From the IMG/VR virus record IMGVR_UViG_3300045988_097246: a DNA stretch of 59,554 bases. The stretch is one strand, 5' to 3'. Shown here in pieces: positions 2,999 to 59,554 of the stretch (the stretch's first letter is position 1; each line of letters begins with the position of its first letter). The DNA comes from a virus. Below the pieces are notes generated by a model, which searched no databases, was not told the DNA's origin, and saw only the letters and a program-made list of their open reading frames with translations. The translations under genes were made by a program, and so were the position numbers.

Positions 2999-3202
2999 AT
3001 GAGAGATTGGAAACAGTGGACTAAGGCGGCGGCAGTTAGAGCAATTAAAACAGTTGCACAAACAGCGGTCGGAGTTATCGGTGCAAGCACTGTTGTAAGT
3101 TCGGTTGATTGGAAAGTAGTTGTTTCGTCAGCGGTTCTTGCAGGAGTTGTAAGTATTTTAACATCTGTAGCAGGACTTCCTGAGGTAGAAACAAATGCTT
3201 GA
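2999..3202 (+). CDS. Holin
   Basis: 67 aa with two TM helices and a charged tail ...GLPEVETNA. GGAG lies 10 nt upstream of ATG 2999. The W..KAA.RA.KT.AQT pattern is typical of Firmicutes phage holins. Confidence 0.7.
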   Translation: MRDWKQWTKAAAVRAIKTVAQTAVGVIGASTVVSSVDWKVVVSSAVLAGVVSILTSVAGLPEVETNA

Positions 3203-6900: not shown

Positions 6901-6918
6901 TCAGAATGAGGTGATTTG

Positions 6919-9900
6919 ATGGAATTAGATAGTTTAGAACTGAAAGTATCGGCAGAAGCACAGTCGGCAGAAAAAACACTTGACAGCCTTATAGGTAAAT
7001 TACAGAGTTTTTCGGAAGCACTTGGCGGTATAAACACTACTTCCATCAGCAAAAACCTTGAAAATCTTGCTAAAGTCGGCGGCTTAAAAACTGTCACTAA
7101 AGAGGTAGAGGACTTAGGAAAAACTGTAGACAATGTCGGTAAGAAGAAAACAAAGACTGAGGTTAAAGTCGATGTTAAGCAAGGCTTAGAAGCTATTGCA
7201 GAATTACAGAAACGATTTGAAAATGCAGACAAAGATATAAGATTTACTGGGTCAACAAAACAACTTGAAAAGCAATACGACAGATTATCTAACAGTCTTT
7301 CAAAACTCTTTGCAAAAGAAAACGCAGCACTTGATTTAGGCAAAGCAAGTACAGGTGATGAAAAGTTCGTTAGATTAGAGCGTAACATACAGTCAACCAT
7401 AAACCAACTTGACACACTTAAATCTAAAATTACAGAAGTTCAAAAAGCAGAACAGGCAAGCAAGGCACAATTTTTTGAAAGAGAAAATGCAAAGGCAAAT
7501 CAAGAAAACAAAACTGCAATGATGATACCGCCTGAGAGTGAAATGAAAAAGGCGGCTGAAACATATCAAAAAAATATGGAAAAAATATCATCAGACACAT
7601 TGCCTAAACACACAGGTTGGGATAGTCAAGCAGAACTTCTTAAAGCATTAAAACAGTCTCGAGAGGGAACTACTGGAGCATTAGAGGGATATGACGAAAG
7701 AATAAAGAAAGCCACAGCCGACCTTAAAGCAGTCGAAAAAAGTGGTAAGGGCATGGGTACTGAGGAATGGAATAATGCTAGTATTGCATTGCGAAAAGTT
7801 GTGGCAGAAGCTAAGTGGTATGAAAATACCTTAAAAGAAGCGGCTGCTGACCTTGATTTGAATATCAAATCTATTAAGGAACTTGAAGCAGAAGAAAGCA
7901 AATTAGTACAAAAATCAAATCAGCTTGCTGGAAAAAAGTTAGTCGGAAGTGCTGATTATAACGAAACCATTTATCAACTTGGACGAGTTAGAGAAGAATT
8001 AGATAAGCAGAGAATAAAAATCACAGGTGCGAGCAGTGCTTTAAAAGGATATGACGAAAGAATTTCACAGGCTAAAATCAATCTTGCTAATATACAAGCT
8101 AGTGGCAAAGGCATGGGGACTTCTGAATGGGACACTGCCAAAATGGCTTTAATCAAGTTAGAAAATGAAGCAAAGCGGTATAAAGCGGCTTTAAATCAAA
8201 AAGCACTAGGTCTTGATACCGACATTAAATCAACGGACAACCTCGAAACAAAGATAAAGAAATTAAATCTTGCTATAGAGCAAATGAGAAATAGAGGTAT
8301 TGGTTTCGGTGATACAAACTTTGATAAGTTGTATCAGCAACTTAATCAAGCCGAAAAAGAACTTGCAGAGTACAAGGCTAGACTGACAGAAAGTGAAAAC
8401 TCGACAAGAAGTTTTGGCAGTACATTAAAGAGTGCGGCAACAGGCTTTTCTAATTTTATCAGTAAGATTAAAAATGCTGGTGCGGCAACACTAAATTTTG
8501 CTAAGAATGTTCGCAACATGAAATCGCCTTTAAAACTTGCACTCGGTCAAATTAGCAAATTAGGAAATTCAGTTGCAAGGCTGTATTTCAAGTACATGAT
8601 GCTGTCAAGGGTTGCTGGTGCACTTGGTAAAGTTCTTGGCATATCAAGTGATTATGTCGAGGAATACAACTATTTTCAAAAGGCAATAGACAAGATTGCA
8701 CAGGAAAATAAAGGTAATTACAAGAAATACGGCTATGATGATGCTAAGAGTTATGCGGATAGCTTTGAGGATAGACTTACAACTCTTACAGGCAAAATGA
8801 CAGGATATAAGCCCGATAAAAATGGAAATCTTATAGATACTAATGCGGCAAGTCTTGGGCTTGATATTACACAGGTTACAAACTTTGAAGCGCAGATTGC
8901 ACAAATGACTAATTCTGTCGGCATGATGGGCGAAGCGTCTATTGCAACCTCAAAAGCCATGACAATGCTTGCTGGGGATATGTCCTCATTAACAAATATG
9001 CCACTCGATACAGTTATGAAAAACTTTTCAAGTGGTCTTTCGGGTGCGGCAATGGCTGTCAAAAAATATGGTATGGACATATCAGTTGCGACATTACAGG
9101 AAACAGCACTTGGGCTAGGTGTTAAGAAAAATGTTTCTGATATGACACAGGCTGAGAAAGAGTATTTGCGTGTTATCACTATGTTACAGCAGTCTAAAGT
9201 CGCATGGGGTGACTTAGCTAAGACTATCAATTCTCCCGCAAATCAATTTAGAATGTTAAAGTCCAACATCAAACAGTGCGGCTTGATGCTTTCAAGGCTG
9301 TTTATGCCTGTCATACAAAAAGTATTACCGTGGTTAAATGCAATGGCAATGGCTGTCAAAGATTTAATGAAACACATCGGTGACTTGTTTGGCTTAAAGT
9401 TTGATAGCAGTCTTGGTTCAAAAGACAGTGACACATCAGATACTTATGACGATGTATCAGACAGTGCCGACAATGCGGCAGATAGTATAAATGATGCGGC
9501 AGATGCACAGAAAAAGTTTAATAAGCAGTTGCAGGGATTTGATAAGTTAAATAATCTTACGACAAACGAAACATCTAAGAAAGACAGTGACAAGGATAAA
9601 AACGGCACAGGAGATGTTAGTGGCGTTTTATCTGATGCTCTTATAAATGCTGTCGAAGATTATGAAAAACGCTGGAATAAAGCGTTTAAAAGCATGACAA
9701 GTGATGCTGATAACCTCAAAGAAAAGATTGAAAAATTATTTACAACAGCTTGGGACACAGGCGACGGAACAGAAATCGGTGAAGCACTTGCGACAACCTT
9801 AAATAAGGGCATTGACTGGGTGAATGAAAATACAAGCAAATGGGCTAAAGGCTTGAAAAAGATTACCTCAATTATGGGTACTTCTTTAAATGGTTTTGTT

Positions 9901-12483
9901 AAAAAATTCAAGTGGAAAGGTTTAGGAAAAGCTATAGGCAATTCTATTAAAGCCGCGCTTGAAGCTGAAACAAACTTCTTTAAAAAAGTAAACTGGGTAA
10001 ATCTTGGAAAAGGTTTGTCGAAAACTCTTAATTCAGCTATCAAAACAGGAGTTTTGCAGTCGTACTTTAAATCAATGGCAAGTAAGTTAAGGGCGGCTAT
10101 TGAGACAGCGTTTGGAGCAATTACTACTTTTGATTTTAAAGGACTTGGAAATGCGTTAGGACAGGGAATAAATGACTTTTTTAAGACAATGAATAAGAAA
10201 AATAAGCAGACTGGTCTTAATGGTTGGCAAGAACTTGGAAAGAGTTTAAGTGACGGAATAAAAGGGATAGCAGATAGTATTACGACTGCACTTGATACTG
10301 TTGATTGGGAACAAGTAGGACAAGCTATTGCTGATTTTATCGGTTCTATTGATTGGGGTGGAGTTGTTTGGTCACTAGGCAAAATGGCGAAATCTTTAGT
10401 TAAAGCAATAGGGACAACGATTACAGCACAAACAAAAGAAGACCCAGTTTCAGGAATAATTACAATAGGAATTTTAGCCTTTACTTTAAGAAAAGGCTGG
10501 AAAAAGCTACTTGCAATATTGCTTGGAAGTAAAATTGGAAAATCTAAAATAAGTGTAGGACTTTCAAGAGTTTTTGCTGTTATAAAAGCATGGTCTATAT
10601 CAAAAATAAGCAAGGCGGCTAAGGCTCTTGCAACAAAGATTAAATCAGGAATCGGCAAAATAGTTGTCACATTTAAAAATGTATATGCAAGTATTAAAAA
10701 TTGGATAGCAAGCGGTGCAAAAATTAGTGATTTGATAAAAGCTGTAAAAACAGCATTAGGCATACAAAAGGGACTGACATTGTCGAATATCGCTGTTAAG
10801 ATTGCTACAAAGCTACCAACATTAGCAAATCCCGATATGGCGGCTGATGAACTAGCAAGAAATATTGATGAATGGTTTACAAACAAAATTTGGAAGCCAC
10901 TTTGCAAAAAAGTTTCTTGGCTTGACGAAAACTCACCTATGGGTGTTTTTCAAGTACCTGTAAAATTAGCTATAAAGATAGGCACAACAATAAAAGACTT
11001 TTTCGGAGATACTTGGGATGATACGACAGCCATGACATCCGGAATTGATGTGGGAAACGATATGGCAAACGGAGTTTTAAAGGGGTTTGCTAATGCGTTG
11101 GTATATCCTGCAAATTTCCTTTACAATCTTATTGTAAAACCTGTCAAAGAAGCATTAGGAATACATTCTCCGTCAACGGTATTTAAGGAGATTGCTGGAT
11201 TTTGCGTTGATGGTTTTATGAATAATTTTAATTTAAAGGACAAAATAAAAGAAAAACTTCAAAATTTAGGTAAAGCAACTATTGAACTTGGATTAAAAAT
11301 AAAAGGCAGTTTTGACGATAAAGCCAAAGAAATCAAGGAATGGTGGAACGGCAAAAAAGAAAAAGTGAAAACTTTAATGGCTAAAGCAAAAGGAGAAATT
11401 AGTAAAAAATTCGATGAAGTTAAAGAAAAATGGAATGGATTTAAGGAAAAAACTAAAAGTGTTATAGCCAAAGCTAAAGGTCAGGCAGATAAAGTATTCA
11501 GCAAAATTGTTGATGGTTGGAATAACTTTACTGACGAGACAAAAACTCTTTTTGCTAAAGCAAAGGGTAAAATCGAAGATAGCTTTAGCAAAGCGAAAGA
11601 AGCATGGGCTAGTTTTACTGAGGGTACTAAACAAATTTATGTATATGCTAAAGGTAAAATTGAAGATAAATTCAAAGAAGTGCAACAAAAATGGTCTGAG
11701 GTCAAAGGCGGCACAAAGGAGTTTTTGGCTAAGGCAAAAGCAACAATTTCAGATAAGTTTGACGAGTTATCCGAAAAATGGGGAAAAATAAAGTCTAAAG
11801 ATGCGATTGTCACTGCAAAAGCTACAATTAAAGATGGCGTTGACAAACTCGGTAGCATATGGAAAAGCGTTAAAACCAAAACGGCTACCTTAACAGGAAG
11901 AGCAGAAGAAAAAACCAAAGATGTTTTTAAGTCAATAAAAGATAAATGGAAAGAATTAACGAGTAAAACAGCAGTTTTAACAGCTACTTTTAAAGATATG
12001 TTCACAGCACCGTTAAAAAAGGCTTGGAATGCTATTGCTAGTGCAATTAACAAAGGCATTAAAACTATCAATAAAATACCGGGAGTTAGTATTCCCTCAG
12101 TACCTAAGTTGGCAAAAGGCGGTATTTTTGAAAATGGTTCGTGGCACAACATAGCAAAATATGCAAATGGCGGTACTCCAAACATGGGTCAGCTTTTCTA
12201 TGCAAGAGAAGCAGGTCCCGAACTGGTAGGCACACTCAAAGGCAGAGGAACAGCGGTCATGAACAACGACCAAATCGTTGCGTCAGTATCGCAAGGTGTG
12301 TCAGACGCAGTATATAATGTTATGACACCTGTTTTAACAAGTCTTGTAACAAGCATAAACCGCATGAATAGTAGCGGCACTCCTTTGTATGTCGAGGGTG
12401 TTTCTGAGGGTGATATAGTCAAGATAACGCAAAATGCCAACAGTAATTACAAAAAGCGTTACGGCAAACCTCTTTTCACTTAG
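6919..12483 (+). CDS. Tape measure protein
   Basis: About 1850-aa ORF after the chaperones. Coiled-coil repeats and a central hydrophobic/TM-rich region. GAGGTG lies 5 nt before ATG 6919. Confidence 0.9.
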   Translation: MELDSLELKVSAEAQSAEKTLDSLIGKLQSFSEALGGINTTSISKNLENLAKVGGLKTVTKEVEDLGKTVDNVGKKKTKTEVKVDVKQGLEAIAELQKRFENADKDIRFTGSTKQLEKQYDRLSNSLSKLFAKENAALDLGKASTGDEKFVRLERNIQSTINQLDTLKSKITEVQKAEQASKAQFFERENAKANQENKTAMMIPPESEMKKAAETYQKNMEKISSDTLPKHTGWDSQAELLKALKQSREGTTGALEGYDERIKKATADLKAVEKSGKGMGTEEWNNASIALRKVVAEAKWYENTLKEAAADLDLNIKSIKELEAEESKLVQKSNQLAGKKLVGSADYNETIYQLGRVREELDKQRIKITGASSALKGYDERISQAKINLANIQASGKGMGTSEWDTAKMALIKLENEAKRYKAALNQKALGLDTDIKSTDNLETKIKKLNLAIEQMRNRGIGFGDTNFDKLYQQLNQAEKELAEYKARLTESENSTRSFGSTLKSAATGFSNFISKIKNAGAATLNFAKNVRNMKSPLKLALGQISKLGNSVARLYFKYMMLSRVAGALGKVLGISSDYVEEYNYFQKAIDKIAQENKGNYKKYGYDDAKSYADSFEDRLTTLTGKMTGYKPDKNGNLIDTNAASLGLDITQVTNFEAQIAQMTNSVGMMGEASIATSKAMTMLAGDMSSLTNMPLDTVMKNFSSGLSGAAMAVKKYGMDISVATLQETALGLGVKKNVSDMTQAEKEYLRVITMLQQSKVAWGDLAKTINSPANQFRMLKSNIKQCGLMLSRLFMPVIQKVLPWLNAMAMAVKDLMKHIGDLFGLKFDSSLGSKDSDTSDTYDDVSDSADNAADSINDAADAQKKFNKQLQGFDKLNNLTTNETSKKDSDKDKNGTGDVSGVLSDALINAVEDYEKRWNKAFKSMTSDADNLKEKIEKLFTTAWDTGDGTEIGEALATTLNKGIDWVNENTSKWAKGLKKITSIMGTSLNGFVKKFKWKGLGKAIGNSIKAALEAETNFFKKVNWVNLGKGLSKTLNSAIKTGVLQSYFKSMASKLRAAIETAFGAITTFDFKGLGNALGQGINDFFKTMNKKNKQTGLNGWQELGKSLSDGIKGIADSITTALDTVDWEQVGQAIADFIGSIDWGGVVWSLGKMAKSLVKAIGTTITAQTKEDPVSGIITIGILAFTLRKGWKKLLAILLGSKIGKSKISVGLSRVFAVIKAWSISKISKAAKALATKIKSGIGKIVVTFKNVYASIKNWIASGAKISDLIKAVKTALGIQKGLTLSNIAVKIATKLPTLANPDMAADELARNIDEWFTNKIWKPLCKKVSWLDENSPMGVFQVPVKLAIKIGTTIKDFFGDTWDDTTAMTSGIDVGNDMANGVLKGFANALVYPANFLYNLIVKPVKEALGIHSPSTVFKEIAGFCVDGFMNNFNLKDKIKEKLQNLGKATIELGLKIKGSFDDKAKEIKEWWNGKKEKVKTLMAKAKGEISKKFDEVKEKWNGFKEKTKSVIAKAKGQADKVFSKIVDGWNNFTDETKTLFAKAKGKIEDSFSKAKEAWASFTEGTKQIYVYAKGKIEDKFKEVQQKWSEVKGGTKEFLAKAKATISDKFDELSEKWGKIKSKDAIVTAKATIKDGVDKLGSIWKSVKTKTATLTGRAEEKTKDVFKSIKDKWKELTSKTAVLTATFKDMFTAPLKKAWNAIASAINKGIKTINKIPGVSIPSVPKLAKGGIFENGSWHNIAKYANGGTPNMGQLFYAREAGPELVGTLKGRGTAVMNNDQIVASVSQGVSDAVYNVMTPVLTSLVTSINRMNSSGTPLYVEGVSEGDIVKITQNANSNYKKRYGKPLFT
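11314..12000 (+). repeat. About eight tandem ~28-aa repeats inside the tape measure (AKAKGxIxDKFxExKxKWxxFKExTK)
   Basis: Seen in the translated protein. A separate ~120-aa tandem duplication is at about 7560-8280 (GYDERI...SGKGMGT.EW occurs twice). Confidence 0.8.
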
Positions 12484-17376: not shown

Positions 17377-18255
17377 ATGGCAGTAATAAAGGTTTACAGT
17401 CGAATAAATTGGCTTAATAAGTCGGAAAGTCTGACAACACCGCTTGGTAAAACAAACTTAAATAAGATGGATAAAGCAATCAATCTTATTGATGATGAAG
17501 TAGTATCAATGTCGGCTAAAATTGATGAAATTGACACTACAAAAGTAAGTGCAGACCAACTTAATAACATGGTGACTGATGTATCTTTTAATGATAAAAA
17601 TGGTGTTATCAGTATAACGAAGCACAATGGTACAGTTTTGAATATTGATACCGCAATGGAAAAAATAGCCGTAAACTTTGAGTATAACGCACAGACACAA
17701 CAGCTCATACTTACACTTGAAAACGGCGAAAAGCAATACGTTGATATGTCAGCTTTGATTACTCAGTATGAGTTTAAAGACACTGATACGATAGCTTTTA
17801 GCATTGATAGCAGTGGAAAAGTGAGTGCGTCTATCAAAAGTGGCAGTATAACAAAAGCTATGCTGTCAAGTGAAGTTATGTCGGCTATAACATTGTCAGA
17901 AAACAATGCGGCGGCATCAGCACAGGCGGCGGCTCAGTCGGCTACAAATGCTGAGTTAGACGCTAAGTTATCTCAGTCTTACAGCGTTGGTAAAAGCGGC
18001 ATCCGTGATGGGGAAAATACTGACAATGCAAAGTATTATTCAGAAAAAGCAGAAACAGTAAGTGCAAATGTGCCATCGTATTTAAAACAAATTGAAGATG
18101 CCGGAAACAGTCAAATAGACAAGATAAATGATGCATTTGGCAAAACAGAAGCCACTTTTAAAGTAAACTTTGAAACAGGGCATCTTGAATACACAGGAGC
18201 AAGATTTACTTTTGAAGTGGCGGATAACGGACATTTAAACTGGGAGGTAAATTAA
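17377..18255 (+). CDS. Tail fibre / baseplate upper protein-like
   Basis: 292 aa. An N-terminus of the form ...INWLNKSE..TPLGKTNLNKMD is common in Firmicutes phage fibre proteins. Contains an Ala/Gln coiled coil. Confidence 0.45.
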   Translation: MAVIKVYSRINWLNKSESLTTPLGKTNLNKMDKAINLIDDEVVSMSAKIDEIDTTKVSADQLNNMVTDVSFNDKNGVISITKHNGTVLNIDTAMEKIAVNFEYNAQTQQLILTLENGEKQYVDMSALITQYEFKDTDTIAFSIDSSGKVSASIKSGSITKAMLSSEVMSAITLSENNAAASAQAAAQSATNAELDAKLSQSYSVGKSGIRDGENTDNAKYYSEKAETVSANVPSYLKQIEDAGNSQIDKINDAFGKTEATFKVNFETGHLEYTGARFTFEVADNGHLNWEVN

Positions 18256-31523: not shown

Positions 31524-32336
31524 ATGAGTGAGAAAATGAAACATATTCCTCATATTAACTCTTATGAGGATATAAGAAAAGAAATGAACAATGACTTGCG
31601 ATATAGACTGAATAGCAGAAAAGAGAGAACTTCATTGGGAGTTCCACTTTACTATCGTATCAATGTTCAGATTATAACAACACAGGAGTGTCCATATAGT
31701 TGCCCATTCTGTTTAGAAAGGCAGAACCCTATGGCAGGAGAAAATGACTTTGACAAGCAGATTGAATCATTGAAAGCAGTTTTGAGCGAACACCCTAAAG
31801 CGAGACTTACAATAACAGGCGGAGAGCCGGGACTTTATCCACAGCATATTAAACAACTTGTAGATACATACAATGAACTTAGCAACAATGTTTTTTGTTC
31901 TGTAAACACGGCAGGATATACAAGAGAGTTAAACGGATTATGCCACATAAATCTGTCTCATAACGATTATGTACACGCAAATCCGAGCAACTTCCCTAAC
32001 TGTACATTGCAGACTGTTGTGGAAAATCCAAGTATAGATTTTATAAAAGAATTTATGCACAAAGACGCTGACAGCTTTTCTTTCAGATTTTTAAGCGGAC
32101 TTGAAAAGAAGGACTATCCAGTTGATATATGGAATGATTTGCAGAACGACAAAGAGATTGATATTCATACCTTTAGAATTGGTGACTTTTTTGTGTATGC
32201 TACATTTAACTATCGTTGCAAGCACGCAAGATTGACTTTGGGCGATATGTGGCAGCAGAGAAACAACGATTACAAAGATGGATATTCAAACATAATTATT
32301 CATCCGAATGGAGTTATAGGAACAAACTGGAAATAA
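31524..32336 (+). CDS. Radical SAM protein (function unknown)
   Basis: CPYSCPFC is a CX3CX2C motif. LTITGGEPGL is a GGEP SAM-binding motif. 270 aa, with no SPASM-like second Cys cluster. Confidence 0.75.
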   Translation: MSEKMKHIPHINSYEDIRKEMNNDLRYRLNSRKERTSLGVPLYYRINVQIITTQECPYSCPFCLERQNPMAGENDFDKQIESLKAVLSEHPKARLTITGGEPGLYPQHIKQLVDTYNELSNNVFCSVNTAGYTRELNGLCHINLSHNDYVHANPSNFPNCTLQTVVENPSIDFIKEFMHKDADSFSFRFLSGLEKKDYPVDIWNDLQNDKEIDIHTFRIGDFFVYATFNYRCKHARLTLGDMWQQRNNDYKDGYSNIIIHPNGVIGTNWK

Positions 32337-39327: not shown

Positions 39328-39537
39328 ATGAAGTTTTCAGAACTGACTAAGCCGGAGCTTGATTTTATTTTAAAATACGCCAACTTCACAGAAGAAGAAG
39401 AAGATATATTCAAATTACTTTCAAGAGGAAAAAGCATAATCGAAATTGCTGAACATATAATGATATGCGAGCGTACTGTTAATAGAAAAGCAGCAAAAAT
39501 AAAAGAAAAAATAAATAAACTGGGGGGATTGACATGA
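39328..39537 (+). CDS. Sigma-70 region-4 / LuxR-type HTH protein (late regulator candidate)
   Basis: 69 aa. ...EEEEDIFKLLSRGKSIIEIAEHIMICERTVNRKAAKIKEKI is a region-4-like HTH. Confidence 0.6.
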   Translation: MKFSELTKPELDFILKYANFTEEEEDIFKLLSRGKSIIEIAEHIMICERTVNRKAAKIKEKINKLGGLT

Positions 39538-39710: not shown

Positions 39711-41072
39711 ATGGAATGTGTTGCGTATATAAGAGTATCAACAGAAAAACAGGTTGAAGAAGGCTACGGGCTTGAAAGTCAGCAAAGAGACATCAAAGAG
39801 TATTGTCAAAAAAATAACATGATAATATCTCACTGGTATATTGATGCAGGTCTGACTGGTATGGAGATGAGCAAAAGAGTTGCATTACAAGAACTTATTT
39901 CTGATTTAAAGAAGATAGATAAAGTCGTTATCTATAAGCTTGATAGACTTGCGAGAGATAGTGTTGATGCTTTAAATATGATTGAAAAAATATTCGTGCC
40001 TAGAAACGTAGAAGTGTTAAGCGTACATGATTTTGCAAAATATAAAACGCCACAGGATAAATTTCAAACTCAAATAATGGCAGCAGTAGCGGAGTATGAC
40101 AGAAACACTATGTTGCTCCGTATGCGCGGCGGTATGTTGGAAAGAATAAAAGAAGGCTACTGGCCGGGTGGCGGTAATACTCCTTATTGCTATTCTTATA
40201 GTAAAGAGACAGGAACGCTTGTGCCGATACCGGAAAGAAAAAAACAAGCTAATGAAGCAATAGACCTGTTTTTACAAGGTTATTCAGATAACAAAATTCG
40301 TGACATGCTAGGTTTTAAAAGTGAAATGGTTGTGCGAAGTCTACTTATAAGTCCAGTCAATATAGGATATATACCCTATAAAGGTAAAATCTACAAAGGT
40401 AAACATGAACCGATTTTTGAAATTGATAAATTTAATTTAGCACAGGAAGTTAGGAAAAACCGAAGAAAAAAGAAAACTACTTGTATAAATAAAGAGCCAA
40501 ATCTACTTACCGGATTATGTTATTGTGGTGTTTGTGGTTGTTCTATGCGGTATCAAAAATGGACACATGGAAAGCATAAAATATACTGTTGTTCAAGAGA
40601 TAAATCAATGTCGTATCTTCCTAATTATAATGCTAATTGCGATAACACTCTTGAATGGGCTGTTGATATTGAAAAACAAGTTGAAGAAGAAATAATTAAA
40701 ATATCATTGAATTTGTCATCAGAAAAGCCAGTTGCAAAACAAAGTAAAATTGAAATTTTACAGTCGCAGATAAAAAAAGAAGAAAATCGCAGAAAGAGAT
40801 TTTTTAATTTGTATGCTGACGGAAACGATGATGTATTATTAAGCATAAAAGAAATTAACAATACTATCAAAAGTTTAAAAGAACAGCTTGAAACTGAAAG
40901 GTCAAATACCGATTTAAATAGGAAGAAAAGCGTTACTTATAAAAACATAAAAAAAATTGCCGATGTTTGGGACAGCATCGACAAAAAAGATAAAAATATT
41001 ATACTTAAAAGTATAATTGATAAGATTGTTATAGTCAATGGAAATATTGAAATACAGTTAAAGAATTTTTAG
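39711..41072 (+). CDS. Large serine recombinase (integrase)
   Basis: N-terminal resolvase motif AYIRVSTEKQ...YKLDRLARD. Recombinase domain. Zinc ribbon CYCGVCGC...CC. C-terminal coiled coil. Confidence 0.9.
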   Translation: MECVAYIRVSTEKQVEEGYGLESQQRDIKEYCQKNNMIISHWYIDAGLTGMEMSKRVALQELISDLKKIDKVVIYKLDRLARDSVDALNMIEKIFVPRNVEVLSVHDFAKYKTPQDKFQTQIMAAVAEYDRNTMLLRMRGGMLERIKEGYWPGGGNTPYCYSYSKETGTLVPIPERKKQANEAIDLFLQGYSDNKIRDMLGFKSEMVVRSLLISPVNIGYIPYKGKIYKGKHEPIFEIDKFNLAQEVRKNRRKKKTTCINKEPNLLTGLCYCGVCGCSMRYQKWTHGKHKIYCCSRDKSMSYLPNYNANCDNTLEWAVDIEKQVEEEIIKISLNLSSEKPVAKQSKIEILQSQIKKEENRRKRFFNLYADGNDDVLLSIKEINNTIKSLKEQLETERSNTDLNRKKSVTYKNIKKIADVWDSIDKKDKNIILKSIIDKIVIVNGNIEIQLKNF

Positions 41073-41113
41073 CACTTACTATATGCTGTGCCAATAGCAT
41101 TAAGTTAGTGCTA
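41070..41113. other. Imperfect 44-bp palindrome at the integrase stop codon (attP candidate)
   Basis: Arms TAGCACTTACTATAT and ATTAAGTTAGTGCTA match at 12 of 15 positions. They are separated by a 14-nt spacer. Confidence 0.3.
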
Positions 41114-41114
41114 A

Positions 41115-41152: not shown

Positions 41153-41188
41153 AAACTGTCGTTTTTGTGTCGTTAAACTGTCGTTTTT
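41153..41188 (+). repeat. Two 14-bp direct repeats AAACTGTCGTTTTT with 22-bp periodicity, plus further TGTCG motifs
   Basis: Repeats at 41153-41166 and 41175-41188. TGTCG also occurs at 41168, 41190 and 39656. Confidence 0.7.
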
Positions 41189-41190
41189 CT

Positions 41191-41212
41191 GTCGCTTTAA
41201 GCGGCTTTTTTT
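41191..41212 (+). terminator. Terminator after the integrase gene
   Basis: GTCGCT-TTA-AGCGGC followed by T7. Confidence 0.5.
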
Positions 41213-41249
41213 ATGTGAAAATAAAATTACAAAAAGGAGAGTGATTGAA

Positions 41250-41420
41250 GTGTACGACGAAGATTTAAGAGAGCGATTACTCTCACGGGAACAAATACAA
41301 AAATTAGACTTAGTAACTCAAACAATATTGTTTAGCGTTATTGAGGATGTATTAGAGGAGAGAGAACATGATAAACAATCCTTATCAACAACAGATGATG
41401 ACTTATACGCCGGGTTATAA
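41250..41420 (+). CDS. Possible small acidic protein (56 aa)
   Basis: AAGGAG lies 10 nt before GTG 41250. The ORF overlaps the next gene by 53 nt, so it is uncertain. Confidence 0.3.
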   Translation: MYDEDLRERLLSREQIQKLDLVTQTILFSVIEDVLEEREHDKQSLSTTDDDLYAGL

Positions 41421-41892
41421 TGCGTATCCGTACAACCCGATGCAAAGATTTCAGGAGCAGCAGTTACCGCAACAGCCAGTTCAACAAGTACCACAACAGC
41501 AGAATTTACAGATACAAGCAGGGATAAATGGCAGAATGGTGGCAGCAGTTGAACAAATTGCGGCTAATGATGTACCTATGGACGGCTCAGTTGCATTTTT
41601 TCCTAAACAGGATTTAACAGAAATATACGCAAAACAATGGGGTGCAGACGGCTCAATAAAAACAGTCGTGTATAAGCCTTATACAGAGCCTAAAAACAGT
41701 CAAGGCATAAATAATACAGAAAATATTGAAAACTTGAAAATTGACCTATCAGACGAAAGCACAGCGGTATTTATGCAGAAGTTTGATGAGATTTTTAATA
41801 AATTTGACGAGTTAGAAAACAAAATGTGTAAAAGTGCTACTTCTCAAAGGAAAACTTCGACTTTAAAAAAGGAGGGCGGTGTAAATGAATAA
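41368..41892 (+). CDS. Gln/Pro/Tyr-rich protein of unknown function
   Basis: GAGGAGAGAG RBS. The N-terminal ~45 aa are mostly Q/P/Y/N/M (NPYQQQMMTYTPGYNAYPYNPMQRFQEQQLPQQPVQQVPQQQNLQ). Confidence 0.6.
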   Translation: MINNPYQQQMMTYTPGYNAYPYNPMQRFQEQQLPQQPVQQVPQQQNLQIQAGINGRMVAAVEQIAANDVPMDGSVAFFPKQDLTEIYAKQWGADGSIKTVVYKPYTEPKNSQGINNTENIENLKIDLSDESTAVFMQKFDEIFNKFDELENKMCKSATSQRKTSTLKKEGGVNE

Positions 41893-42115
41893 TCAGATTA
41901 TGCAGATGTTAAATCAGATTAAAAATATAAAAAATCCAAAAGAAGCCGCTATGAAAACATTAGAGCAAGCGGCAAATCAAGGAAATCCAATGGCAAAAAA
42001 TATGTTGCAGAAAATAAACAGCGGTGACATGAGCGGAGCACAGCAGATACTTGGCAATTTTATGAATGAGCAAGGATTAAATATACAGGAAATTCAAAAA
42101 CAAATTCAAAAATAG
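41885..42115 (+). CDS. Small Asn/Gln/Met-rich helical protein
   Basis: ATGA-type overlap with the previous gene; 76 aa. Confidence 0.55.
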   Translation: MNNQIMQMLNQIKNIKNPKEAAMKTLEQAANQGNPMAKNMLQKINSGDMSGAQQILGNFMNEQGLNIQEIQKQIQK

Positions 42116-42191
42116 TACATATTAGGGTTTTGTCCGGACAATAAAAACCAGTTCCCTATTTTGTAAATAAATTAAATGGAGGTAAACTAAT

Positions 42192-42971
42192 ATGTTTAAC
42201 AACGGAGTTAGCCTTGCCGATATTGCGGCAGTAACAGGCAATAACAGAAACAATGACGGTATGTGGGGAGACGGAGCATGGTGGATTGTCATTCTTCTTA
42301 TTTTCGGCTGGGGTGGTTTTGGTAACAACGGCTGGGGTAACGGTAATGGAATGGGTTCTACTGCCGCCGCTTATACAGACAGTGCTATTCAGCGTGGATT
42401 TGATAATCAGGCTGTTGTTTCAAAACTTGATGGCATTTCTAACGGACTTTGTGACGGTTTCTATGCTATGAACAACAGTATGCTTACCGGCTTTAATGGT
42501 ATTAACACAAATATCATGCAGACCGGCTATGGCATCCAGCAAGCTATTAACGCTGATACAGTCGCTAATATGCAAAATACAAATGCTTTACAGTCACAGA
42601 TTGCTAACTGCTGCTGTGAGACGAGAGAAGCCATCCAAGGTGTAAACTACAACATGGCAACTAACACTTGTGCTTTGCAGAACACAATGAACAATAATAC
42701 AAGAGATATTATTGACAGCCAGCAGGCAGGAACAAGAGCAATCCTTGACTTCCTGACAAATGACAAGATTGCAACCTTACAGGCAGAGAATAACGATTTG
42801 AGAAGAGCTGCTTCACAGGATAGACAGAACGCACTTCTGACTTCTGCCATGAGCACACAGACAAATCAGATTATTGATGCAGTAAGACCTACACCGGTCC
42901 CTTCGTTCCCGGCTTCTAACCTTTATGGTTACGCATATGGATGTGGTTGCAATACAGGATGTGGCTGCTAA
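42192..42971 (+). CDS. Membrane-anchored Asn/Gln/Gly-rich protein with Cys-rich C-terminus
   Basis: GGAGGT RBS. TM segment GAWWIVILLIFGW followed by GGFGNNGWGNGNG. A long N/Q/T-rich region contains a CCC. The protein ends GYAYGCGCNTGCGC. Confidence 0.65.
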   Translation: MFNNGVSLADIAAVTGNNRNNDGMWGDGAWWIVILLIFGWGGFGNNGWGNGNGMGSTAAAYTDSAIQRGFDNQAVVSKLDGISNGLCDGFYAMNNSMLTGFNGINTNIMQTGYGIQQAINADTVANMQNTNALQSQIANCCCETREAIQGVNYNMATNTCALQNTMNNNTRDIIDSQQAGTRAILDFLTNDKIATLQAENNDLRRAASQDRQNALLTSAMSTQTNQIIDAVRPTPVPSFPASNLYGYAYGCGCNTGCGC

Positions 42972-43239
42972 TGAAAGAAGAATATGAAGATTTTGATTTT
43001 TTGATAGTAATTCTTTTATATATGGCATTGGTGGAAAAAACTTAACTAAAAAAATAAAAGCTTTCAAAAAGGCTTAAAACAATAAAGTATCTTAATTAAG
43101 CTTAACTTGTTTTTAATTTGGCATTAACGAATTAAAACAAGATTTAAACGAGATTATGTCTGCTAAGCAGTATTACTTACAAACACAAAGGGCAGGCTAT
43201 AATGTTTGCCCTTATTTTTATGAAAGAGAGGTAAAAATA

Positions 43240-43659
43240 ATGGAAATAACAGGAATTGCGTTACAAACAGTTGCCGCCGGAGAAGATGTTGCATTTACAG
43301 AAACACCGGTATGCGGTAGCAAATGTATAGTCCACAGACAGGGAAGCGGAATTATCAAGTTAAGAGGTATTACAAATCAGTGCAAGGCTAGATTTTTAGT
43401 ATCTTATAGTGGAAACATTCAGATACCTACAGGCGGTACAGTTGAAGCTATTTCGCTTGCTATTACAGTAGATGGAGAGCCTTTGCAGTCAACAAGAATG
43501 ATTGTAACACCAGCCGCAGTTGAGAATTTCTTTAATGTATCAGCACAGGCATACGTTGATGTGCCTTGTGGTTGTTGCAGTACAGTAGCGGTGCAGAATA
43601 CATCAGCACAGGCTATTGAAGTACAAAATAGTAACTTAATCGCAGTAAGGGAGGCTTGA
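43240..43659 (+). CDS. Beta-rich Cys-containing protein (possible C1q/TNF-like jelly roll, as in BclA C-terminal/exosporium domains; unverified)
   Basis: GAGAGGTAAAAATAATG RBS. A hairpin at about 43187-43215 argues against the upstream ATG 43156. The sequence shows an alternating hydrophobic pattern. Confidence 0.55.
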   Translation: MEITGIALQTVAAGEDVAFTETPVCGSKCIVHRQGSGIIKLRGITNQCKARFLVSYSGNIQIPTGGTVEAISLAITVDGEPLQSTRMIVTPAAVENFFNVSAQAYVDVPCGCCSTVAVQNTSAQAIEVQNSNLIAVREA

Positions 43660-43663
43660 TGAT

Positions 43664-44326
43664 ATGCATAAATGGGCTAAACAGATAATGGAATGCGTCA
43701 AGGCTAAGGTTGACGGAATTGGAATTGACAATTTTGAGGGGCAGAACCTTGACGATTTAAAGGATTTTACAGAAATAGCGAAAAACATAGCTTGCTTTGA
43801 TAAGGATTACAGAATTGTTGAAGCTATGGAAAAGTCAGAAGATAATGAGGATATTATGCGTATGCTTGAACAGTACGAAGATTATCCGGACAGAAGATAC
43901 TATGACGCTTACCGCTATGCAAACGGCAGATTCGCCCCTAAAGGTCGTGGAACACGCAGAGGATATGAAGAACCGCCATATTATCATATGTACCCTGAAT
44001 ACGACGAAAGAGAGCGTATGAGAGACATGGATAGGGATGATAGAGGAAAGATGTATTACAGCGAACCTGCAAGCAATGTGGGTGGTAGCAATAATATGTC
44101 AAGAAACTACTCTGAAAGCAACTATGACAGGGCAAAGCGTAACTATACAGAAACAAAAGAGTTACACAAAGGGAACACTCAGGAAGATAAAGAGCATAAG
44201 ATGAAATCCCTTGACGGATACATGAAAGAGTTGTCAACAGACATTACACACTTGCTCGGTGACATGACCGCAGAGGAAAAAAATCTTTTAAGAACAAAAC
44301 TTAGTACGCTTGTTTCTAAGATTTGA
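43664..44326 (+). CDS. Tyr/Arg/Asp/Glu-rich protein of unknown function
   Basis: 220 aa. The central region reads RRYYDAYRYANGRF...RRGYEEPPYYHMYPEYDERERMRDMDRDDRGKMYY. Confidence 0.6.
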   Translation: MHKWAKQIMECVKAKVDGIGIDNFEGQNLDDLKDFTEIAKNIACFDKDYRIVEAMEKSEDNEDIMRMLEQYEDYPDRRYYDAYRYANGRFAPKGRGTRRGYEEPPYYHMYPEYDERERMRDMDRDDRGKMYYSEPASNVGGSNNMSRNYSESNYDRAKRNYTETKELHKGNTQEDKEHKMKSLDGYMKELSTDITHLLGDMTAEEKNLLRTKLSTLVSKI

Positions 44327-44350
44327 GAATAATATTTTCCGACAATCTAG

Positions 44351-44383
44351 GGCTATAGATAGCAATATCTGTAGCCTGTTTTG
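44351..44383 (+). terminator. Rho-independent terminator closing the five-gene cluster
   Basis: GGCTATAGATA-GCAA-TATCTGTAGCC followed by TGTTTTG. Confidence 0.65.
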
Positions 44384-44541
44384 AACTTTGAAAACTTTAT
44401 ATTGTTAATGATTTTTAAATAAAGACAATCTTTGTATGCAGTTTATAGGCTAGAGTTGATACATTCCATGAAAAATGTACATAAATTTATGATACACACA
44501 TGGATAGAATAACAAAAAATATCAACTGGAGGAATGATACT

Positions 44542-45195
44542 ATGTTAGTAGAAACAAGAAAATTAAGCAAAAAAGAGGTAACTGTAGTAACAAGTCTTGA
44601 TGTAGCGAAAACTTTTGAAAAGGAACATTACCATGTCATAGAGGAAATAAGAGCTATACGGGAGAAAATTAGTAGCACCGAATTTTCGGGGCTATTCTAT
44701 GAAAGTGATTATGTTGCATCAAACGGCAAGAAAAATCCAATGTATCTTATGAACCGAGATGGCTTTACACTTTTAGTAATGGGCTATACAGGAGAAAAGG
44801 CTATGAAATTTAAGTTAGCCTACATCAATCAATTTAATGAGATGGAAGAACTTCTTAAAGGCAAGTTGATAGAAAGAGAAAAAGGCATTGCGGTTAGACA
44901 ATCACTTACAAAAGCAATTCAAATGTCGAAAGAAAACGAGCGTATGCACGGACACGCATATTCTGTTTATACTGACATTGTATATAGGGCTGTATTTTGC
45001 AAGACAGCAAAGCAGTTAAGAGAAGAATATGGAATTGATAAAAAGGCTAATTTGCGTGATTATTTCACAGTAGAGGAACTTGCAAAAGTCCAGTCCATAG
45101 AAATGATAGTAAGCGGTCTTGTTAATTGTGGATGGGGATATAATGAAATCAAACATTTTATTACTTCATCAACTTTAAAATTAACAGCGGCATAA
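44542..45195 (+). CDS. Rha-family phage regulatory protein (second copy)
   Basis: GGAGGA lies 8 nt before ATG 44542. Motifs VTSLDVAKTFEKEHYHVIEEIR...MNRDGFTLLVMGYTGEKAMKFK.AYI..F..ME. Confidence 0.7.
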   Translation: MLVETRKLSKKEVTVVTSLDVAKTFEKEHYHVIEEIRAIREKISSTEFSGLFYESDYVASNGKKNPMYLMNRDGFTLLVMGYTGEKAMKFKLAYINQFNEMEELLKGKLIEREKGIAVRQSLTKAIQMSKENERMHGHAYSVYTDIVYRAVFCKTAKQLREEYGIDKKANLRDYFTVEELAKVQSIEMIVSGLVNCGWGYNEIKHFITSSTLKLTAA

Positions 45196-45265: not shown

Positions 45266-45586
45266 ATGTTTATAATAAACAATATAATGTGGCAAATTGT
45301 ATTTGTACCAAGCGGCAGTAATAAACTTATGCGTTCTGACGGTTCTATTAGCCTTGCTGTGACCGATTTTAACGACAAGACGGTATATGTATCAGATAAT
45401 GTAAAAAACGGCTATTTACGCAAAGTAATGGCTCATGAATTATGCCATTGTTTTTGTTTCAGTTACAACATATATATGCCTATTCAGCAAGAGGAATATT
45501 TGGCTGACTGGATAAGTTTATATGGTGCAGATTTGATATATTTACTTGACGATTTGATGATAACTTTAACAAGGAGTGTGGCATGA
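45266..45586 (+). CDS. Small HExxH zinc-metalloprotease-like protein
   Basis: GAGGTG RBS. VMAHELCHCF is an HExxH motif. 106 aa. Confidence 0.5.
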   Translation: MFIINNIMWQIVFVPSGSNKLMRSDGSISLAVTDFNDKTVYVSDNVKNGYLRKVMAHELCHCFCFSYNIYMPIQQEEYLADWISLYGADLIYLLDDLMITLTRSVA

Positions 45587-51283: not shown

Positions 51284-51373
51284 GGGCGAACGGCAACGAT
51301 TGGTGGTGTTGCGGCAGACTGTAAATCTGTTCCCATGTGGTAAACAATAGAGGTTCGATTCCTCTTTCGCCCA
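51284..51373 (+). tRNA. tRNA-Tyr (anticodon GTA), long variable arm
   Basis: Acceptor GGGCGAA/TTCGCCC. Anticodon stem GCAGA/TCTGT with loop CTGTAAA. T arm AGAGG-TTCGATT-CCTCT. The variable region is unusually long. Confidence 0.75.
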
Positions 51374-55208: not shown

Positions 55209-55246
55209 AAGCACCTTTGCTGGAGAAAGCGAGGTGCTTCTTTTTT
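55209..55246 (+). terminator. Terminator-like hairpin containing the terminase RBS
   Basis: AAGCACCT, 15-nt loop, AGGTGCTT, then CTTTTTT. GAGGTG (55231-55236) lies in the 3' arm. Confidence 0.55.
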
Positions 55247-59323: not shown

Positions 59324-59554
59324 ATGAAGAGAGAAGAACTGACAGCTATGGGTTTGACTGATGAACAGATTGAAAAAATCATTGCTGAGAATAGTAAGGA
59401 TGTTCAGGCAGCAAACGCAAAAGCAAACAAAAACAGTGAAGAACTGACAAGACTGCGTGAGTTGGAAAAGGAATACACAGCCATGAAAGATAAGGATTTA
59501 TCCGATTCGGAAAAACTGCAAAAAGACCTTGATTCTGCAAATGCAAAAATCGCA
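59324..59554 (+). CDS. Capsid scaffolding protein, N-terminal part (continues at nt 100 after the junction)
   Basis: GGAGGT RBS. In frame with 1..423 through the 99-nt duplicated segment. Confidence 0.7.
   Translation, partial: MKREELTAMGLTDEQIEKIIAENSKDVQAANAKANKNSEELTRLRELEKEYTAMKDKDLSDSEKLQKDLDSANAKIA
59456..59554. repeat. Terminal direct repeat, copy 2
   Basis: Identical to nt 1-99. Confidence 0.95.

Follow-up and report, generated by a model that had tools for sequence, protein, structure and literature searches.

A mobile phage cassette built around a Cys-rich core protein and an exchangeable partner, located beside an integrase that targets a sporulation sigma-factor gene

We analyzed a viral DNA of 59,554 nucleotides (IMG/VR record IMGVR_UViG_3300045988_097246; this whole stretch is hereafter called the window) and focused on a cluster of small genes between a large serine recombinase gene, the integrase, and a Rha-type regulator gene. 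The cluster is called the cassette, and its genes are designated p0 to p5. A first-pass annotation, made from the letters of the DNA, had listed five genes with strong ribosome-binding sites (RBSs) and had suggested a spore-surface-like or otherwise undescribed envelope system. All five open reading frames (ORFs) were present on the plus strand where it had placed them, namely p1 (41368..41892), p2 (41885..42115), p3 (42192..42971), p4 (43240..43659) and p5 (43664..44326). A good RBS was found for each, including the Shine-Dalgarno sequences GAGGAGAGAG for p1, AAGGAGGG for p2, TGGAGGT for p3 and AGGGAGG for p5. A sixth small ORF that was absent from the list, p0 (41241..41420, plus strand), precedes p1 and overlaps its start; it encodes an acidic protein of 59 aa from a GTG start with a good RBS. 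The data establish a mobile, self-contained and, by prediction, regulated cassette around p3 and an exchangeable Cys-rich partner, whose function is putative.

The start codon of p4 was assigned to position 43240 (Met29 of a longer reading), giving the 139-aa protein that had been assumed. The longer reading (start 43156, 167 aa) was rejected because it has no RBS and contains a hairpin of −15.9 kcal/mol (43188-43213), and because nearly all of more than 3,700 p4 homologs are 139–140 aa in length. The start of p2 overlaps the stop codon of p1, suggesting translational coupling. The p1 protein consists of a Q/N/P/Y-rich N-terminus of about 45 aa, a conserved core of about 50 aa, and a coiled coil with a basic tail; its family has two subtypes with a common core. 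p2 is a Met/Gln/Asn-rich helical protein of 76 aa (Q 17%, N 16%, M 10.5%). p5 has helical N- and C-terminal parts with an R/Y/D/E-rich low-complexity linker between them, and its relatives carry an RRDSMGRYSR-type motif.

The composition of the cluster had been described as extreme in Gln, Asn, Tyr and Cys. Relative to the rest of the genome, Gln (2.2-fold), Asn (1.6-fold) and Met (1.7-fold) were indeed enriched, whereas Tyr (0.9-fold) and Cys (1.0-fold) showed no overall enrichment. The Tyr residues cluster in p5 (8.2%), and the Cys residues in p3 and p4 (3.5–4.3%). The window encodes tRNAs for Gln, Asn, Tyr and Ser, which had been proposed to decode exactly the enriched residues. This held for Gln and Asn but not for Tyr and Ser-AGY codons, which showed no enrichment. 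For codons read by the four tRNAs, p2, p1 and p3 ranked first, second and fourth among 104 ORFs, driven by Gln and Asn only; the cluster favors CAG, yet the anticodon of the phage tRNA-Gln is UUG. The tRNA-Tyr(GTA) was called by ARAGORN at 51284-51373 (90 nt, anticodon at position 38), and the Rfam tRNA model at its gathering threshold reported the other three tRNAs only. The fourth may be a tRNA of atypical form or with a long variable arm, or it may have been called falsely.

Searches of p1 to p5 and their divergent variants against Pfam, NCBIfam and PADLOC gave no significant family match, and the only PHROGs matched are of unknown function: PHROG 21718 for p1, PHROG 16490 for p3 (9e-55), PHROG 20016 for p4 (1e-67), and PHROG 28802 for the p5 homolog of Dulem virus 35. 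p2 gave sub-threshold matches only against the family libraries. The PADLOC defence models gave insignificant coiled-coil matches only (best E 0.0037, 14 bits). Sequence searches of PDB with the single proteins, and with profiles of p1 and of p4b, the alternative to p4 described below, yielded no relevant match. The earlier statement that no described system has this gene set thus agreed with the Pfam, NCBIfam, PADLOC and PDB searches. No signal peptide was found in any cassette protein, and p1, p2, p4 and p5 have no signal-peptide-like segment.

We examined the co-occurrence of the genes in other phages and prophages, a check proposed in the first-pass annotation. When one genome of each prokaryotic species was scanned, 80 loci were found, mostly in Lachnospiraceae, Oscillospiraceae and other Clostridia, and tblastn with p3 gave 44 phage records. 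From these two sources, together with the window, the loci with enough flanking sequence formed a set of 60. Co-conservation in this set was strong: p1 was present in 56 loci, p2 in at least 45, a slot-4 protein in 59 and p5 in 44. Slot 4 is occupied by one of two families of small Cys-rich beta-proteins, p4a (39 loci, including the p4 of the window) or p4b (20 loci). The p0 gene is kept in 10 of the 60 loci, with homologs at the same position in Dulem virus 39, in the locus L007 and in others. The gene order was always p0-p1-p2-p3-(px)-p4-p5-(mp), where mp encodes a small HExxH metallopeptidase-like protein, whereas the identity of p3 among the order-conserving loci was 33–79%. Since the order is kept in dozens of loci despite the divergence of p3, the clustering is far beyond chance. 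The complete p1-p5 set occurs in Dulem viruses 39 and 35 and in Butyrivibrio phage Ceridwen; C. perfringens phage vB_CpeS-17DYC and bajarodcaudo virus 5 have p1-p3 with a different slot-4 protein.

The mp gene lies beside the cassette in 16 of the 60 loci and beside p3 in the crAss-like genome cr116_1, and Bacteroides phage C3_41T2LP has a gene annotated as 'PolyVal metallopeptidase' at the equivalent position. In the window, mp (45266..45586, plus strand; weak Pfam M78/SprT-like matches, PHROG 1233/87) is separated from the cassette by the Rha-type regulator gene (44500-45195), and it is a possible accessory component of the cassette. A further family of about 130 aa with a GDC...GH...DSWDS pattern accompanies the cassette in 43 loci, just upstream or downstream, and is absent from the window. 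It looks like a Cys/His peptidase and has no Pfam match; examples are at L034 7999-8388, L076 8601-9014, L085 8549-8959 and L003 4722-5099.

At least four distinct insertion contexts were found. The cassette directly follows the serine integrase in the window and in Dulem virus 39, and it follows an antirepressor in C. perfringens phages. In 18 loci it lies between an SPP1-gp7-like minor head gene and the scaffold or major capsid protein (MCP) gene, with scaffold or MCP confirmed downstream in 12. In other loci it follows an endolysin gene, with tyrosine integrases or repressors downstream.

The regions flanking the cassette contain candidate regulatory elements. A gene for a GerE/LuxR-type regulator with a sigma-70-region-4-like helix-turn-helix, designated reg, lies upstream (39328..39537, plus strand; 69 aa; Pfam GerE 28 bits, cutoff 23.5). 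Of 71 loci, 43 have a homolog of about 66–70 aa on the same strand no more than 2.5 kb upstream, and in 23 the distance is at most 400 nt; in the window, the integrase and the phage attachment site (attP) intervene between reg and the cassette. Between attP and a promoter-like motif, two direct repeats of 20 nt, AAACTGTCGTTTTTGTGTCG and AAACTGTCGTTTTTCTGTCG (41153..41194, plus strand), form a possible operator, and their TGTCG elements are kept in relatives. The promoter-like motif TTTTTATGTGAAAATAAAAT (41208..41227, plus strand) occurs once in the window. Very different loci have a common layout between reg and p1, consisting of a GC-rich hairpin, a T-run and the motif TTTTTATG(C/A)(G/C)AAAAT(A/T)TAAT. 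A weight matrix of the motif, applied to −300 to +150 of the cassette start, detected it in 29 of 75 loci, 16 of them outside the training set, with a 36-fold enrichment. The motif was not found at other gene starts. Its use as a general late promoter was considered and rejected, the sites upstream of the scaffold gene having only a T-run and ATG in common. Inspection by eye for sigma-E/K/G-type promoters, a check proposed in the first-pass annotation, and for sigma-F-type promoters gave no match, and a loose resemblance to sigma-H promoters (AGG...GAAAAT) was unconvincing.

Terminators had been claimed on both sides of the cluster, and hairpins were confirmed at both. The upstream hairpin with a T-run (41191..41205, plus strand; −7.2 kcal/mol, z = −3.4) has equivalents in divergent loci. 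It is predicted to be the terminator of the integrase gene or, in a lysogen, of the 5′ half of the host sigma-factor gene described below, insulating the cassette. The closing hairpin is at 44350..44377 (plus strand; −17.1 kcal/mol, z = −4.0), and a hairpin with a T-run was found within 250 nt past p5 in 40 of 61 loci. A third hairpin with a T-run (43188..43213, plus strand; z = −3.9), the one that excluded the longer p4, lies in the AT-rich spacer of 270 nt between p3 and p4. Its sequence is conserved in Dulem virus 39; possible roles are those of an attenuator and of a processing/stability element.

Phage morons are autonomous promoter-gene-terminator units, such as HK97 gp15 and lambda bor/lom. 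The cassette is likewise a self-contained unit with a predicted promoter-like element and terminator, located at module boundaries or late-operon sites in variable positions. It differs from morons in being far larger, with five to six genes and a dedicated regulator, and in occurring also in apparently virulent phages. As judged from these predicted elements and from the spread of the genes, the cassette appears to be an autonomous, moron-like transcription unit that is self-regulated, mobile and widespread. Its autonomy and variable position resemble those of moron-like accessory units and argue against core structural genes.

The p3 protein is the core of the cassette. From the N-terminus, it has an acidic tail of about 30 residues, a Trp-flanked hydrophobic core AWWIVILLIFGW, a linker extremely rich in Gly, two amphipathic helices and a Cys-rich C-terminal tail. 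The long helices span residues 73-111 and 119-231, with an amphipathic periodicity of 3.6–3.67 residues, and a CCC triplet is invariant. The family means of Cys per protein were 10.8 for p3, 9.0 for p4b and 4.8 for p4a, whereas p1, p2 and p5 were not Cys-rich. The p3 family, which has no name or Pfam domain, falls into at least about 8,000 clusters when grouped at 90% identity and into 1,900 when grouped at 50%.

Homologs of p3 were also found outside Firmicutes phages. Viruses with tblastn matches of 27–30% identity include many crAss-like phages, the cultured Bacteroides uniformis phage C3_41T2LP and viruses for which the GenBank host field names Methanomassiliicoccales. Divergent homologs were located at L006 4929-5825, L087 5989-6906 and L088 5878-6759. 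Depositors had labeled p3 homologs 'spike protein/glycoprotein' or 'outer capsid protein/viral fiber'. The residues invariant across the Firmicutes-phage and crAss-like homologs are the hydrophobic segment and its Gly/Trp flanks. Because this segment is conserved, and because a lipid membrane is the sole target common to hosts with such differing envelopes, we read it as a membrane anchor. The small genes after p3 in the crAss-like, archaeal and Bacteroides viruses have no detectable similarity to p1, p2, p4 or p5. The p3 neighbors of crAss-phages were tried as homologs of these proteins and gave hhalign probabilities of about 1% or less, except for one weak value of 3.9%; no homology is claimed.

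The low-complexity composition of p1, p2 and p5, which is extreme, could be accounted for by a condensate or assembly-factory scaffold, in which these proteins would phase-separate through Tyr-Arg 'stickers' on a p3 membrane tether and concentrate phage assembly or replication. Such a scaffold would suit the head-operon contexts, but the argument is one of composition throughout and leaves both the Cys-rich tail of p3 and the folded p4 protein described next without a role, and the crAss-like and archaeal versions lack p1, p2 and p5. We regard it as the least probable of the explanations considered here.

The structure of p4 was predicted using AlphaFold2, and the model had a predicted local distance difference test score (pLDDT) of 81.5 and a predicted template modeling score (pTM) of 0.75. 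The first-pass annotation had guessed a fold like the C1q/TNF-like C-terminal domain of BclA, and the model agreed with this guess: p4 is confidently predicted to be a C1q/TNF-like jelly roll. Foldseek against PDB matched the C-terminal domain of F-BclA of B. thuringiensis (9h38; E 1e-6, template modeling (TM) score 0.70–0.73), BxpB of B. anthracis (8d02), ExsFA of B. cereus (7r1m) and BclA (1wck), with TM scores of 0.65–0.73 and E-values of 1e-6 to 5e-5 for the four entries. EDA-A1 (1rj7) matched with a TM score of 0.76; other TNF ligands and then phage receptor-binding knobs followed below. No relevant match was obtained by phmmer of p4 against PDB, and neither p4 nor its Ceridwen homolog matched Pfam, BclA_C included, at E ≤ 0.1. 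Invariant cysteines are Cys29, Cys48 and Cys112-Cys113. In BFVD, free-standing p4-like proteins of about 135–140 aa were found in gut siphoviruses, myoviruses and podoviruses, and the family, which has no name or Pfam domain, comprises at least about 8,000 clusters at 90% identity. The p4b proteins open with a conserved M-A-C-x3-C-x2-C motif, and the p4b profile did not match PDB sequences. Homology between p4a and p4b is not claimed (hhalign probability below 1%).

BclA/F-BclA and BxpB/ExsFA share the predicted jelly-roll fold with p4 (TM score about 0.7, E 1e-6 to 1e-5). BxpB/ExsFA are, like p4, free-standing domains of about 140 aa without a signal peptide, and p4 adjoins a Cys-rich partner. 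However, the identity of p4 to BclA/ExsFA is only 10–16%, with no match to BclA_C, and (GXY)5 or longer repeats, GPT[LFI]PP and [LI][VI]GPT motifs were found in none of 367 p1–p5 family members. Unlike the exosporium proteins, the cassette proteins are phage-encoded, also by phages of non-spore-formers, and the partners of p4 are unrelated to ExsY/CotY/BclA. In the endospore appendages (ENA; S/L-ENA and F-ENA), subunits are cross-linked by an N-terminal connector containing Cys, for which the M-A-C-x3-C-x2-C start of p4b would be a candidate; p4a, p4b and the crAss-phage neighbor had no Pfam match to DUF3992/DUF4183, the ENA subunit families. Viral fiber knobs, such as those of the phi812 central spike (9eul), the cyanophage A-1(L) short tail fiber (8ke9) and giant-virus collagen-like C1q proteins, share both the fold and the viral context. 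They differ in being the C-terminal domain of a long fiber protein encoded among tail or structural genes, whereas p4 is a small separate protein.

We tentatively favor a reading in which the cluster, as a mobile accessory cassette of phages, builds a Cys-rich p3 stalk that is anchored in the membrane and bears an exchangeable p4 head. All parts would be made in the cytoplasm during phage development. p3 would oligomerize via its two long amphipathic helices, and its short Trp-flanked, Gly-bracketed hydrophobic segment would anchor it in the cytoplasmic membrane. The Cys-rich C-terminal tail of p3 would then capture the Cys-bearing p4 head by disulfide or metal bridges, analogous to the docking of an F-Anchor N-terminal peptide, and reportedly of one from BclA, on ExsF/BxpB trimers. 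ExsF trimers bind a peptide from the N-terminus of a fiber protein (PMC12357932), and we infer the contact between the p3 tail and the p4 head from the ExsF/F-Anchor precedent, the adjacency of the two genes and their common Cys richness. The product would be a two-polypeptide assembly of anchor, stalk and trimeric head that recalls the type II membrane ligands of the TNF family. The other proteins, p1 (Q/N/Y), p2 (M/Q/N) and p5 (R/Y/D/E), all of low complexity, would be assembly, chaperone or adaptor factors. The assembly would serve the phage at the envelope of the infected or induced cell. Our leading guesses are that it shields the cell from further phage by exclusion or masking, or that it controls what happens at the envelope around the time of lysis; this biological output is the weakest step of the proposal.

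TNF-superfamily type II ligands such as EDA-A1 are laid out in a similar way, with a hydrophobic anchor at the N-terminus, an extended stalk and a jelly-roll head of the TNF type. In the cassette, by contrast, the head (p4) is separate from the anchor and stalk (p3), the stalk is helical and Cys-rich, and the anchor core is about 13 residues long with no positive-inside signal; homology is not implied. A resemblance of p3 to i-spanins of the Rz/Rz1 type, which combine an N-terminal transmembrane segment with a Cys-bearing coiled coil and pair with an outer-membrane lipoprotein in Gram-negative hosts, was also considered and rejected, because it is one of layout only, no spanin-type lipobox was found in any p3 partner family, and the host is a Firmicute with sporulation genes.

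Several points weigh against a membrane-anchored assembly. The hydrophobic core of p3 is only 10–16 residues long (mean 13.3 aa over the family) and has no Lys/Arg flank to provide a positive-inside signal. The AlphaFold2 monomer of p3 is all-helical and of low confidence (pLDDT 49), which makes it unfit for a fold search. The composition of p3 and p4, rich in N/Q/T/S/G and Cys with few charges, is more typical of extracellular or virion proteins. The head-operon context of about one quarter of the loci suits a virion role at least as well. In addition, the p3-p4 interaction is deduced from adjacency and Cys content only, and the promoter motif is a computational prediction.

In a different reading, the products would form an accessory fiber or decoration (adhesin) of the virion: p3 would be a trimeric stalk on the capsid or tail, p4 an exchangeable distal knob that binds glycans of bacteria or gut mucus, and p1, p2 and p5 assembly chaperones. 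C1q/TNF-like knobs are common at viral fiber tips, as in the phi812 central spike, cyanophage A-1(L) and the giant-virus collagen-like proteins, and a swappable head resembles the exchange of receptor-binding domains. An extracellular-type composition without signal peptides is also as in virion proteins, but a conserved membrane-like hydrophobic segment is unusual in a fiber or decoration protein. Besides the 18 loci inside head operons, many more are at the end of a late operon; however, the position of the cassette is highly variable, early regions included, and its dedicated regulator, promoter and terminators are atypical of structural genes. The labels 'outer capsid protein/viral fiber' and 'spike protein' given to p3 homologs by other annotators agree with a fiber, although they are homology-free, and siphoviruses, crAss-like phages and archaeal viruses offer p3 no common docking site. 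We consider a virion fiber rather unlikely and favor the membrane-anchored assembly over it.

The 18 loci directly 3′ of SPP1-gp7-like minor head genes also bear on whether the products are ejection or pilot proteins, packaged in the capsid beside the gp7-like protein and injected with the DNA, in which case the p3 segment would help form a channel through the host membrane. p3 is helical with a membrane-active-looking segment, a membrane is a target common to very different hosts, and a metallopeptidase-like gene recurs nearby, that of the Bacteroides phage being annotated 'PolyVal metallopeptidase'. Nevertheless, a folded p4 jelly roll is unlikely to pass a tail channel, siphoviruses already have a tape-measure protein for DNA entry, and the cassette, with a regulator of its own, often lies at a distance from the head genes, as in the window. 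Ejection proteins are therefore improbable in our estimate.

We turn next to the setting of the cassette in lysogens. The integrase upstream of it (39711..41072, plus strand) matched Pfam Resolvase (3.6e-32), Zn_ribbon_recom and Recombinase, and the integrase family PHROG 95 (6e-99). An attP at about 41.1 kb had been considered, and the attL/attR junctions and a prophage of Lachnospira intestinalis placed it at about 41.09 kb. It is an imperfect inverted repeat (41069-41087 / 41096-41114; 41069..41114) that follows the integrase stop codon, and the crossover is in or beside the common core GTGCCAAT (about 41087-41094). The attR junction was found in contig L091 (7363-7918), which carries the window integrase at 100% identity; the identity extends up to ...GCTGTGCCAAT, followed by the host codons PMIIGEIRRYLRD... 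and, past them, a ylmC/ymxH-like start. The attL junction was found in contig L098 (3756-4900) as ...GCAGTGCCAAT/AGCATTAAG..., followed by p0-p1-p2; ahead of it are valS, a STAS-domain gene, a HATPase_c gene and a sigma-70 region 2 fragment. Joining the host halves of the two contigs gave an intact sigma factor of 239 aa, with the insertion site in the codons for YAVPMIIGEI.

The gene into which the phage integrates thus encodes a sporulation sigma factor of the SigF/SigG family. In L. intestinalis, the C-terminal part of the counterpart scored best against SigG models (E 5e-77). The gene order ahead of the target is one that we take to be spoIIAA-spoIIAB-like. The target is assigned to the joint family because of this SigG score, while the upstream gene order and the short N-terminus favor SigF. 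The link that had been drawn between large serine recombinases and sporulation genes is thus valid for this phage. Since attP adjoins the cassette, the cassette is at the prophage end in lysogens of this phage, as had been predicted, just 3′ of the 5′ half of the split sigma gene. In the chromosome of Lachnospira intestinalis CLA-AA-H89B, a related prophage starts exactly at the position corresponding to 41094 of the window. It is inserted in the same sigma gene and site (L007 8079-8891) in the opposite orientation, so that the 3′ half of the sigma gene adjoins the cassette end of the prophage instead of its integrase end (L007 8800-8940 compared with L091 7330-7470). A palindrome in the attB core, ATGATCAT, may allow both orientations. 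Free attP and integrated forms were found together in one sample, and the host carries sporulation genes.

SigF and SigG are forespore sigma factors. Described intervening elements interrupt mother-cell genes (PMC4191935), and we found no report in the literature of an insertion in sigG or sigF. With a target expressed in the mother cell, the germ line retains the element. The skin element (sigK, SpoIVCA) and SPbeta (spsM, SprA) likewise use a large serine recombinase and insert in a sporulation ORF (PMC4191935), and here too the joined flanks restore an intact ORF. The present element differs from them in its target, which belongs to the SigF/SigG family and is not a mother-cell gene, and in that it looks like a complete phage whose free attP forms coexist with integrated ones.

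This setting bears on the proposal of the first-pass annotation that the cluster is a lysogenic-conversion cassette adding exosporium- or coat-like proteins to the spore surface of the host. In the lysogen, the cassette is directly downstream of the spoIIAA/AB-like genes and the sigma 5′ half, in the same orientation; however, a hairpin terminator is predicted between the sigma 5′ half and the cassette, the related prophage of L. intestinalis has the reverse orientation, and the insertion should itself block sporulation unless the prophage is excised. The best structural matches of p4 are the exosporium proteins F-BclA, BxpB/ExsFA and BclA, and p3 and p4 are Cys-rich and predicted to be made in the cytoplasm, like coat proteins, but collagen repeats, the BclA targeting motif and sequence matches to DUF3992/DUF4183/BclA_C are all lacking. 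A host that forms no spores had been named in the first-pass annotation as a refuting observation; the host of this phage has sporulation genes, whereas relatives of the cassette occur in phages of non-spore-formers. Butyrivibrio, the host genus of Ceridwen, is taken here as non-sporulating. Loss of sporulation genes is documented in one related Butyrivibrio species (bioRxiv 10.1101/2022.02.25.481979), and Ceridwen, which carries the full cassette, is considered virulent by its describers (PMC7372960). Together with the 18 loci within head operons and the p3 homologs in Bacteroides/crAss-like and archaeal viruses, Ceridwen argues against a spore-coat, exosporium or lysogenic-conversion function. 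The spread over viruses of non-spore-formers and archaea makes a spore-surface role unlikely as a general function; the idea accounts for the context of this phage only, conflicts with the distribution of the cassette, and appears to us very improbable.

Only one fold is recognizable among the six proteins, and the protein that has it departs from both the BclA/ExsFA and the ENA families in sequence and architecture. Therefore, we regard the cassette as an undescribed kind of phage cassette with a putative function. A bolder extension of the membrane-anchored assembly is a new class of virus-encoded envelope organelle, a portable and self-regulated kit with which gut viruses of Firmicutes would equip the infected cell or released particles with a membrane-anchored stalk, cross-linked through Cys and bearing an exchangeable head, TNF/C1q-like or alternative. 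In viruses of Bacteroidota and even of methanogenic archaea, the p3 core would have the same role. In the present phage, the cassette lies just behind the split forespore sigma-factor gene, and transcription could enter it from there when sporulation begins. We consider this unlikely.

The window comprises an entire, circularly permuted siphovirus genome. Its ends share an exact direct overlap of 99 bp (1-99 and 59456-59554), which indicates that the genome is complete, is circular or circularly permuted, and has a length of about 59,455 bp. An integrase and a p1 identical to those of the window are carried by contigs of 59,574–59,582 bp from other samples. The MCP gene is at 782-1873, the tape measure gene at 6916-12483, the replication genes at about 23–35 kb, the TerL gene at 55245 and the portal gene at 57745. 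The early region encodes a radical-SAM-domain protein (31524-32336), and a protein encoded between tail genes (17377-18255) matches PHROG 17196, labeled 'kinase'. In the head module past the MCP gene, there are an XhlA-like gene (2656-2991; N-terminal transmembrane segment and coiled coil, labeled by eye) and a homolog of r1t-type holins (about 3053-3196) that is 59% identical to the holin of bajarodcaudo virus 5. No endolysin was recognized in the whole window. A lysis role for the cassette, argued from a window without a lysis cassette, was rejected because the r1t-type holin homolog is present and because, in other carriers, a normal endolysin gene immediately precedes the cassette.

Of the protein families in gut viromes that lack a name, those of p3 and p4 belong to the more abundant. 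A mobile cassette of fixed order, with a recognizable head fold and a core found across domains, turns "hypothetical proteins" into a testable target, and carriers are available in culture: Ceridwen, the phiCP13O-like C. perfringens phages, Bacteroides phage C3_41T2LP and the lysogen L. intestinalis CLA-AA-H89B. If p3 and p4 form an appendage of the membrane or the virion, this would be a new type of phage structure with an evolutionary link to the TNF-like exosporium proteins. The insertion of a complete temperate phage in a SigF/SigG-family sigma-factor gene is unlike all described intervening elements, and it raises the question of whether phages of gut Lachnospiraceae block sporulation, excise during sporulation, or ride in spores.

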